Assembly (NCBI GenBank): GCA_034530615.2
Contig: JAVRCV020000068.1
Location: forward strand, 64,001 to 128,000
Length of the DNA stretch: 64,000 nt
Reading direction: 5' to 3'
Source of the DNA: Aulosira sp. ZfuVER01
Lineage (GTDB): Bacteria; Cyanobacteriota; Cyanobacteriia; Cyanobacteriales; Nostocaceae
Of this stretch, positions 38,269 to 38,447 are shown piece after piece. Made by a program: the position numbers and the translations under genes. Every line of letters starts with the position of its first letter. The stretch's first letter is position 1. Under the pieces are notes generated by a model. That model was not told where the DNA came from and made no database searches. It saw only the letters and a list, made by a program, of their open reading frames with translations.

Positions 38269-38447
38269 CCATGCAAGTTCAAGAAGCTTTTTACAACTAC
38301 GGTCGCTCTTACCAAATATTGGCAGTGGGCACGCACGCTAAATCTGCAAGAGACTTAGAAATCATGCTTCGCTGGTTCGATCGCTCGAATTTTACTACCT
38401 TAGGGCCGTTATCAATGTGTATGTATGCTTCTTGTGTTAGGGCACGG
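38269..38447 (-). ncRNA. scaffold RNA unit 5 with permuted 23S H67-H71 mimic
   Basis: AUAACGGCCCUAAGGUAGUAAAAUUC (38412-38387) at the 5' side and GGUAAGAGCGACCGUAG at the 3' side of the cargo. Confidence 0.8.

Follow-up and report, generated by a model that had tools for sequence, protein, structure and literature searches.

The 64,000-nucleotide (nt) stretch of the cyanobacterium Aulosira sp. ZfuVER01 analysed here (contig JAVRCV020000068.1, positions 64,001 to 128,000; hereafter the window) carries an array of RNAs that combine a common two-helix scaffold with variable inserts, and one member of this array, unit E (38269-38447, minus strand), holds an insert whose segments resemble, in circularly permuted order, the central junction of domain IV of 23S rRNA. 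Six units with the same flanks lie on the minus strand and are read from 39300 to 33100. Unit E belongs to a family of structured RNAs that is linked to a gene for a divergent Ro60 protein, and its helices are maintained by compensatory base changes. We consider it probable that unit E is a Y-RNA-like partner of Ro60 whose module imitates the core of 23S domain IV; the binding of its stem to Ro60, the ligand of its module and its biological role are what we infer from the features described below.

Likeness of the unit E insert to 23S rRNA

A preliminary description of the window had placed a permuted mimic of the 23S helices H67-H71 at 38288-38418, and this interval is exactly the insert of unit E between the two halves of its scaffold. 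Because 23S rRNA was not found in the assembly to which the window belongs (83 contigs, 99.99% complete), that of Tolypothrix tenuis PCC 7101, a genome with a homologous locus (L081), was taken as the reference. The 5' part of the insert, AUAACGGCCCUAAGGUAGUAAAAUUC (38387-38412), is identical at 23 of 26 positions to positions 1838-1863 of this rRNA, the H69-H70 stretch, which bears out the match claimed earlier. By a binomial estimate, the chance expectation of such a match between this insert and one 23S rRNA is about 5e-6, and the best 26-mer over 100 shuffles reached 19/26.

The 3' part, GUGCCCACUGCC / GGUAAGAGCGACCGUA, aligns with the 100 nt immediately upstream of this anchor, namely the junction after H67, the base of H68 and the 5' strand of H69. 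The alignment allowed gaps long enough to skip H68, and three gap scorings were used. For the window copy, the observed score was reached by 10, 16 and 102 of 2000 dinucleotide shuffles, respectively; for the family consensus, 9, 123 and 36 of 5000 shuffles scored as high. In all three scorings the upstream region was the best 100-nt window of the entire 23S rRNA (p roughly 0.002-0.05). When the 3' part was compared with the whole 23S rRNA under stricter gap costs, the result was not significant (41 of 200 shuffles), and one such search chose another site. The resemblance of the 3' part to the upstream rRNA segment, as it had been described, thus stands with respect to its place, but is only moderately significant when taken alone. 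Since the 3' part matches the segment directly upstream of that matched by the 5' part, the rRNA order in the insert is circularly permuted.

We assigned the rRNA blocks from the Rfam consensus structure of the H67-H71 region, in which CGCC/GGCG forms H67, U-GCC-CA-GU-GCCGG is the junction with the 5' side of the H68 base, CCGGU-GA-AC-GGC is the 3' side of that base, and GGCCGU-AACUAUA-ACGGUC forms H69; there follow C-UAA-G, GUAGC, a single G:C pair around AAAUUCCUU and H71, CG-CACGAAA and the 3' strand of H67. The insert starts with the loop remnant AUA-ACGGCC and continues with C-UAA-G and GUAGUAAAAUUC, a GNRA hairpin at the place of H71, and C-CA-GCGAA with GCAU. Its second half is composed of a new hairpin of 8 base pairs (bp), GUGC with GUGCCCAC, UGCCAA-UAU-UUGGUA, and AGAGC with GACCGU. 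The order of all these pieces corresponds to a single circular permutation of H67-H71, with H67 capped, H68 cut to 6 bp and the two ends forming H69.

In the preliminary description the order was turned so that the H69 stem faces the scaffold, H68 was cut short and new hairpins capped the cut ends. These features are all found: the closing helix ACGGCC/GACCGU is present, with a single mismatch, and covaries; H68 is reduced to a 6-bp base hairpin with a short loop (UGCCGG...CCGGUG is the rRNA counterpart); and the two hairpins are UUCGA-GCGA-UCGAA (38376-38389) and CUAAGUCU/AGAUUUAG (38338-38358), the latter closing the end that in rRNA leads on to the rest of 23S. The extent of the mimicry, H67 to H71, had been drawn somewhat too widely; H67, the H68 base, the H69 stem and the 5' segment of H70 are represented, but H71 is replaced and the pairing of H70 is not evidently kept.

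The sequence GATAACGGGCCTAAGGTAG occurs once more in the genome (contig C1:71756, plus strand); it is H69-H70-like with one extra base, and may be a chance occurrence.

Homologs, scaffold and linkage to the Ro60 gene

By means of the neighbouring 522-amino-acid (aa) open reading frame (ORF), 419 related loci were retrieved, of which 80 loci from Nostocales were kept. Unit E is present in 43 of the 80, with identities of 84.5-96%. Forty-four unit E sequences from Nostocales were aligned with MAFFT (alignment A1), a covariance model (R1) was built from A1, and 26 sequences from many families were aligned to R1 (alignment A3); since A3 is fitted to the model, it favours the structure. With R1, 16 further genomes of the order, from at least 12 other families, yielded full-length homologs scoring 84-128 bits, and at E<=1e-12 the tally in the order sample was 18 of 151 genomes and 17 of 81 genera. 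A search of viral contigs with a unit E pattern gave no match.

The pairing is well maintained in both alignments. In A1, 95.8% of the cells are paired, compared with 25-38% in controls with slid partners, and nine pairs show compensatory change, a count reached in 1 of 500 shuffles; in A3, the paired fraction is 91.5% and compensatory change is seen in 27 of 48 pairs, which none of 500 shuffles attained. The long-range H69-like helix, which was proposed from the comparison with rRNA and then tested by pair counts on the alignments, is the helix with the most covariation: four of its six pairs are compensatory in A1, where 94.3% of its cells are paired, and five of six in A3. Compensatory changes were also seen in the scaffold helix P1 (3/6 pairs in A1, 4/6 in A3) and in the H68-base hairpin (three pairs in A3), and the H67-like helix shows CG -> UA in 8 and UG -> UA in 12 of the 44 sequences of A1.

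The rRNA-like blocks are the most conserved columns of A1, and the H69-H70 block is the best local 23S match in 25 of the 26 members of A3. Some distant homologs are even closer to 23S rRNA than the window copy, with 28/28 (L118), 27/28 (L108, L112, L113 and L117) and 30/33 (L114) identical positions, and in 10 of the 26 a second or third 23S match lies collinear in the upstream 97 nt. Thus, the two points on which the permuted mimic had been thought most open to refutation came out in its favour: the permuted pairing is supported by the covariation of the H69-like helix, and the similarity extends beyond one short unconserved segment, with the H67-like and H68-base helices retained. The opening at the H69 loop, the part that makes bridge B2a, is true of the Nostocales subfamily to which the window belongs, but not of the family as a whole, because the complete loop with the upper stem, CGUAACUAUAACGG, is intact in 6 of the 26 wider homologs (and in 0 of 44 Nostocales copies). 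In these six lineages, the scaffold enters via the 5' strand of the H69 stem.

The 5' half of the scaffold reads G(U/C)GCCCUAAC, one base, a helix strand of 8-9 nt and (A/U/C)UACA(U/C)AC, and the 3' half consists of the complementary helix strand followed by AACUUG(C/U)(A/G)C. Among the units of the window, the inner helix varies in sequence with its pairing retained (GCAAAAGC/GCUUUUUC, CAAGAAGC/GCUUCUUG and GUGAAGCA/UGCUUUGC). The terminal stem with the conserved internal loop CCYNRAY/RACUU is present and covaries; this loop is common to the scaffold units detected in related loci, as seen in the consensus of 164 units from 76 loci (75 of the 80 fetched loci and the window). The linker UACA (38418-38421) can pair with UGUA (38292-38295), a third helix that is 100% paired in A1, and UACAUAC is the acceptor-stem strand in the tRNA units of the array. 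The sequence ACUUG(C)AC may resemble the vertebrate 3' strand. Two other identities of the scaffold were considered and rejected. An integron attC-like site (CCCTAAC...GTT-like ends) was ruled out, as there is no complementarity between the two loop strands and the inserts are genes of folded RNAs; a permuted intron-exon or self-cleaving ribozyme scaffold was ruled out, as the scaffold has only about 47 nt and matches no ribozyme family.

The 522-aa ORF, the gene of which lies about 1.8 kb downstream of unit E, probably starts at Met46, because its homologs have 477 aa. As a single sequence, it matches Thermus phage Ro60 structures (E 1e-4, residues 71-440). The profile of the 46-member family matches the solved structures 9nen (human or animal Ro60; 2.5e-15), 9l5y/9kop (phage protein; 6e-13), 1yvp (Xenopus Ro; 7e-12) and 2nvo (Deinococcus Rsr; 8e-7), and Pfam vWA_Ro60 is matched by 10 of the 46 members. 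In the genomes and loci examined, the Ro60 homolog is 69-97% identical across cyanobacterial families, the neighbours in the same loci being 46-74% identical.

All occurrences of unit E found are in loci encoding this divergent Ro60 (TROVE+vWA) protein. In a phylum sample of 151 genomes, R1 matched in 10 genomes and the Ro60 homolog was found in 11, which include all of the 10; there was no R1 match in the 140 genomes without the homolog, and the matches adjoin the gene. These genomes represent only seven genera and are therefore not independent. In 18 divergent loci, unit E adjoins the small ORF described below in 16 cases and lies within 1.5 kb of the Ro60 gene in seven.

RNA libraries also contain sequences of this kind. 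A 197-nt contig from one metatranscriptome, with five differences, covers 38272-38468, and contigs from the RNA libraries of a second study cover unit E and the array. The metatranscriptomes of relatives contained only small shares of the words, contig depth cannot rank expression, and a lack of cover in some parts carries no weight as evidence. A joint that goes back among the contigs of relatives falls in repeated scaffold sequence and so cannot show circles; these contigs of relatives, the only ones available for this purpose, gave no sign of circularisation of unit E, and no bulge-helix-bulge motif was apparent on reading its sequence.

Other units and genes of the locus

The features of unit E and the other elements of the locus are collected in Table 1. 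The order of the locus is conserved; unit E is followed by unit D and the 239-aa ORF. Unit E itself behaves like a cassette. In loci without it, the small ORF runs directly into unit D, and in some of them the flanks (window 38262-38275 and 38442-38452) meet at the base of P1, CATCCG|G..., as if unit E had been precisely excised or never inserted; an example is the joint around 4741-4772 of L014.

Table 1. Elements of unit E and its locus, with positions in the window and occurrence in the 80 Nostocales loci
Element	Position	Strand	Evidence or remark	Loci of 80
Unit E, scaffold and insert (non-coding RNA of ~179 nt)	38269..38447	-	R1 score 228.5 bits; 95.8% paired across homologs	43
Scaffold helix P1, 5' strand CCGUGC	38442..38447	-	partner GCAUGG at 38269-38274; 98.1% paired	
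Conserved internal loop, 5' side CCUAACA	38435..38441	-	opposite AACUU at 38275-38279; candidate Ro60-binding site	
Scaffold helix P2, 5' strand CAAGAAGC	38427..38434	-	partner GCUUCUUG at 38280-38287; 86.9% paired in A1	
Near-invariant linker AUACAUACACAUUG	38413..38426	-	invariant columns in A1	
rRNA-like 26-mer: H69 loop remnant, H69 3' strand ACGGCC (38404-38409), C-UAA-G turn, H70 5' segment	38387..38412	-	23/26	
Hairpin UUCGA-GCGA-UCGAA at the place of H71	38376..38389	-	97.7% paired in A1; 3/5 pairs compensatory in A3	
H67-like helix, 3' strand GCAU	38364..38367	-	partner GUGC at 38333-38336; position agrees with H67 in Rfam structure	
Capping hairpin CUAAGUCU-CUUGC-AGAUUUAG	38338..38358	-	95.9% paired in A1; also in single-sequence fold	
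GUGCCCAC junction and short H68-base hairpin UGCCAA-UAU-UUGGUA	38310..38332	-	100% paired in A1 and A3	
AGAGC junction and H69 5' strand GACCGU (38299-38304)	38299..38309	-	pairs with 38404-38409	
tmRNA tRNA-like domain without mRNA-like part	39001-39084	-	head of array; Rfam tmRNA 43.8 bits, gathering score 47	48
Split tRNA-like RNA enclosing unit F				73-75
tRNA-like RNA, anticodon UUU (in unit F)	38790-38903	-	Rfam match above threshold	
Small 66-aa protein (small ORF)	38464-38661	-	conserved; invariant C-terminal RPEAVYG	76
Unit D, circularly permuted tRNA	38108-38252	-	weak Rfam YrlA match, 23.1 bits, E 0.18	64
ORF239				62
tRNA-like RNA, anticodon UAA	37125-37250	-	Rfam match above threshold	
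Unit C				75
bL12 paralog inside array	36694-37086	-	TIGR00855, 105 bits	27
Unit with 23-nt insert	36495-36564	-	scaffold flanks	
Unit B				77
Ro60-like protein (TROVE HEAT ring and vWA), 477 aa	35003..36436	-	profile match to solved Ro60 structures; presumed scaffold partner	80
Unit A	33163-33366	-	scaffold with insert beginning with sarcin-ricin loop	55
E1-like ThiF protein and 277-aa protein	31609-32259, 32253-33086	-	ThiF matches defence-system E1-E2 models	68 (ThiF), 69 (ORF277)

Several other units also resemble RNAs of the translation machinery. The insert of unit A (33165-33364) is identical to the sarcin-ricin loop at 13 of 13 positions (23S 2575-2588) and to helices H43-H44 of the GTPase-associated centre at 35 of 45 (23S 1081-1126), and the Rfam large-subunit (LSU) rRNA model matches the region of unit A in the locus of a relative (E 1.6e-12). 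It also holds pieces like 23S 510-536 and 2564-2580. The domain with which the array begins is matched at both of its ends by the transfer-messenger RNA (tmRNA) model, and 24 nt stand in place of 316 model positions. Unit D, with its permuted tRNA at 38110-38250, consists of a T arm, a closed acceptor hairpin and a D arm, with the scaffold joining at the place of the anticodon stem, as in YrlA; its YrlA match covers the tRNA-like part only and compares with a gathering score of 69. In the whole window, Rfam gives matches above threshold only for the two tRNA-like RNAs with UAA and UUU. The region of unit F (38725-38945, minus strand) appears two-headed, the scaffold and the UUU tRNA-like RNA lying inside the apparent anticodon loop of another tRNA-like RNA, and its inner anticodon loop varies in sequence and length among near-identical relatives.

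With regard to the protein genes, the bL12 paralog lies 1.2 kb from unit E and is not tightly linked to unit E or unit A: 18 of the 80 loci have both bL12 and unit E, 25 only unit E and 9 only bL12. The predicted fold of the 66-aa protein (pLDDT, the prediction's own confidence score, 84) showed in Foldseek a weak likeness to ubiquitin-like/PB1 domains (best E 0.03). As this protein lies together with the E1-like ThiF and 277-aa proteins, the Ro60 locus may possibly contain a ubiquitin-like conjugation module. Sequence searches of solved structures (Protein Data Bank) and of the protein Atlas with the 239-, 277- and 363-aa ORFs gave nothing usable. A 455-aa ORF between the Ro60 gene and unit A (33571-34938, plus strand) has a nucleotide match in 1 of the 80 loci and none covering 70%, and with almost no match in the related loci it looks like an insertion in this genome. 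Elsewhere in the window, at 42165-42626, three tandem copies of a 117-nt repeat lie in a 217-aa ORF (42141-42794, minus strand) and encode a proline-rich repeat unrelated to unit E.

Possible role of unit E and comparison with known systems

It is known that Ro60 genes are flanked by Y RNAs, the terminal stem of which binds Ro60 and the module of which mimics tRNA (PMC4201824; PMC12135203). By our reading, unit E would be encoded on the minus strand as a stable and structured non-coding RNA some 180 nt long, and would belong to a Y-RNA-like family encoded around the divergent Ro60 gene in cyanobacteria. Its ends form the stem shared by all units of the array (P1, the loop CCYNRAY/RACUU and P2), and this stem is most likely the element bound by the Ro60 homolog. 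The distal module is a miniature, circularly permuted central junction of 23S domain IV, with the H69 stem made from its two ends and stacked toward the scaffold. By analogy with YrlA, the tRNA-like module of which is handled by tRNA enzymes, the module may be bound by a protein whose usual target is this part of 23S rRNA, either free or at the 50S interface; a modification or assembly enzyme, a translation factor and a nuclease are candidates. In that case, unit E would either hold that protein on Ro60 or act as a competitor of rRNA for it.

Several observations weigh against this reading. On the side of the rRNA likeness, the similarity of the 3' part is modest and depends on the scoring; the Rfam LSU model (RF02541), which did find true 23S genes and the GTPase-centre-like piece of a related array, gave no match to 38260-38460 even at E<=10; the pairing ACGGCC/GACCGU of the window copy contains one A.C mismatch; and besides the changes in H70 and H71, most of the H69 loop is gone in the subfamily of the window. 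The H69-like helix is missing from the predictions of RNAalifold on A1 and of single-sequence folding, which do contain P1, P2 and three hairpins, and the z-score of the minimum free energy in single-sequence folding is only -2.07. As for Ro60, the scaffold loop CCYNRAY differs from the motifs published in PMC4201824, GNCGAAN0-1G for bacterial Rsr and GGUCCGA with a bulged C in vertebrates, and no Rfam family, including Y_RNA, YrlA and LSU rRNA, matches unit E at E<=10. Moreover, a further scaffold unit with a YrlA-like insert lies away from the Ro60 locus (contig C32:181013-181150, minus strand; locus L106:1501-1638), embedded where 21 tRNA genes are arrayed over about 2 kb; a loose regular-expression search over the genome, which returned 378 mostly irrelevant matches, missed the C32 unit. 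Finally, the library contigs that cover unit E stem from relatives; they may reflect DNA carry-over, and they do not give RNA ends and abundance.

The main rival explanation is that the array belongs to a conflict system, in which the RNAs show, as bait or decoys, sites of the translation machinery that are hit by ribotoxins or anticodon nucleases or bound by factors, and in which the units soak up toxins or report an attack to Ro60 and to the neighbouring ubiquitin-like and E1 genes. Other units mimic exactly such sites, as seen in unit A and the tmRNA tRNA-like domain, and the anticodon loops of the tRNA-like units vary in sequence and length between near-identical relatives. The ThiF match to defence-system E1-E2 models, the invariant C-terminal Gly of the small protein with its weakly ubiquitin-like fold, and the presence or absence of unit E as a clean cassette would also suit this explanation. 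However, none of the genes in the locus was identified as encoding a toxin, a nuclease or an immunity protein, and neither the Ro60 homolog nor the proteins without assignment are covered by a PADLOC model. The rRNA sequence UUCCU, the site of MazF, is lacking in 44 of 44 Nostocales copies and in 24 of 26 wider copies. The preliminary description connected the mimicked region with bridge B2a, RRF, release factors and MazF toxins; such links would be putative for unit E, and neither the H69 tip nor the UUCCU site is preserved in the subfamily of the window. The synteny across many families and the high conservation of the Ro60 homolog fit housekeeping as well as conflict, and we regard a bait or decoy role as unlikely, if the strongest of the competing explanations. 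A more elaborate form of it, which is distinctly unlikely, would make the locus a 'pseudo-ribosome on a string', that is, a set of RNAs held by Ro60, each of which would display one vulnerable or factor-binding site of translation as bait (the H69 junction, the sarcin-ricin loop and GTPase centre, tRNA anticodon arms and the tmRNA tRNA-like domain); if a drug or the ribotoxin of an invader bound or attacked one of them, the event would be registered through Ro60 and relayed to the neighbouring ubiquitin-like/E1 module. If true, this would be a ribosome surveillance system based on RNA mimicry.

Another explanation is that unit E acts independently of Ro60, as a sponge or regulator. It would titrate a protein that binds the H67-H71 junction, be it a ribosomal protein or a factor of assembly or modification, in the manner of the rRNA-like leaders of ribosomal protein operons, and the scaffold would be no more than a stem for processing, for instance by RNase P/Z or RNase III. 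The mimicry of rRNA by mRNA leaders is a well-known regulatory device, and a bL12 paralog is encoded in the locus; furthermore, the scaffold of the tRNA units is attached to the acceptor stem like a paired leader and trailer, and one scaffold unit lies within a tRNA array. However, unit E is outside any leader of a ribosomal protein gene, with unit D and an ORF of 239 aa to which no function is assigned coming next, the bL12 paralog is present in a minority of the loci and co-occurs poorly with unit E, and the R1 matches track the Ro60 gene almost perfectly. We therefore think this explanation quite improbable. That unit E is no functional mimic, but a decayed scrap of 23S, a chance resemblance or a part of the 80-aa ORF that overlaps it on the plus strand (38262-38504), is extremely improbable. 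The lack of a match to the LSU model, the weakness of the 3' similarity on its own and the overlapping ORF could be cited for it, but the segments are in permuted order and covarying hairpins close their cut ends, at least 12 families retain the structure in full with its many compensatory pairs, and the rRNA-like blocks are the columns that change least. Single-base indels are scattered through the alignment of 44 homologs, a pattern that does not fit a coding frame, and the chance expectation of the 26-mer is small. A Y-RNA-like partner of Ro60 with a 23S-like module therefore remains the explanation that we favour.

Mimicry of rRNA in the leaders of ribosomal protein genes and mimicry of tRNA in Y RNAs are already known, and in the literature searched and in Rfam 15 we found no description of a Ro60-linked or free-standing RNA that mimics a 23S domain. 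That a natural, conserved and free-standing miniature of a 23S junction is mounted on the same kind of scaffold as the tRNA mimics of Y RNAs, next to imitations of further sites of the ribosome, suggests that Ro60 systems may be programmable with interchangeable imitations of the translation machinery. It offers a defined RNA of 137 nt with which proteins that read the H69 region may be fished, and gives a handle on the function of the strongly conserved cyanobacterial Ro60 locus.

Like YrlA and other bacterial Y RNAs bound by Ro60 (Rsr) (RF02553, RF00019; Chen et al. 2014, PMC4201824), unit E lies beside a Ro60/TROVE gene and has paired ends that carry a variable module. Both modules imitate an RNA of the translation machinery, and unit D of the same array is a YrlA-type permuted tRNA on the same scaffold. 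However, the module of unit E imitates 23S domain IV and not tRNA, its stem motif is CCYNRAY/RACUU and not GNCGAAN0-1G, there are six units per locus interleaved with protein genes, and YrlA has an Rfam family whereas unit E has no Rfam match. In comparison with H67-H71 of 23S domain IV itself (RF02541), unit E shares the 23/26 block (up to 28/28 in relatives) and has H67, the H68 base, the H69 stem and C-UAA-G in the right mutual order; its rRNA-like part differs in being 137 nt long instead of about 150 nt within 2.8 kb, in being permuted, and in having an H68 of 6 bp, H71 replaced and H67 capped. The leaders of ribosomal protein operons that mimic rRNA are likewise natural RNAs in which a site that a protein binds on rRNA is reproduced. 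They act in cis, usually resemble a single helix or junction with no long stretch of identity, and precede the gene of the protein that they bind, whereas unit E is a free-standing RNA on a scaffold with no ribosomal protein gene behind it. Permuted RNA genes are also known, such as the permuted tRNA genes of red algae and the two-piece permuted tmRNA (for which Rfam RF04321 exists), and they have in common with unit E that the order of the segments is rotated and the folded shape is kept. However, the product of these genes is the functional canonical RNA, which either arises by way of a circular form or consists of two pieces, whereas the module of unit E stays on a foreign scaffold; unit E would thus be a natural case in which circular permutation serves to mount an rRNA domain on a carrier.

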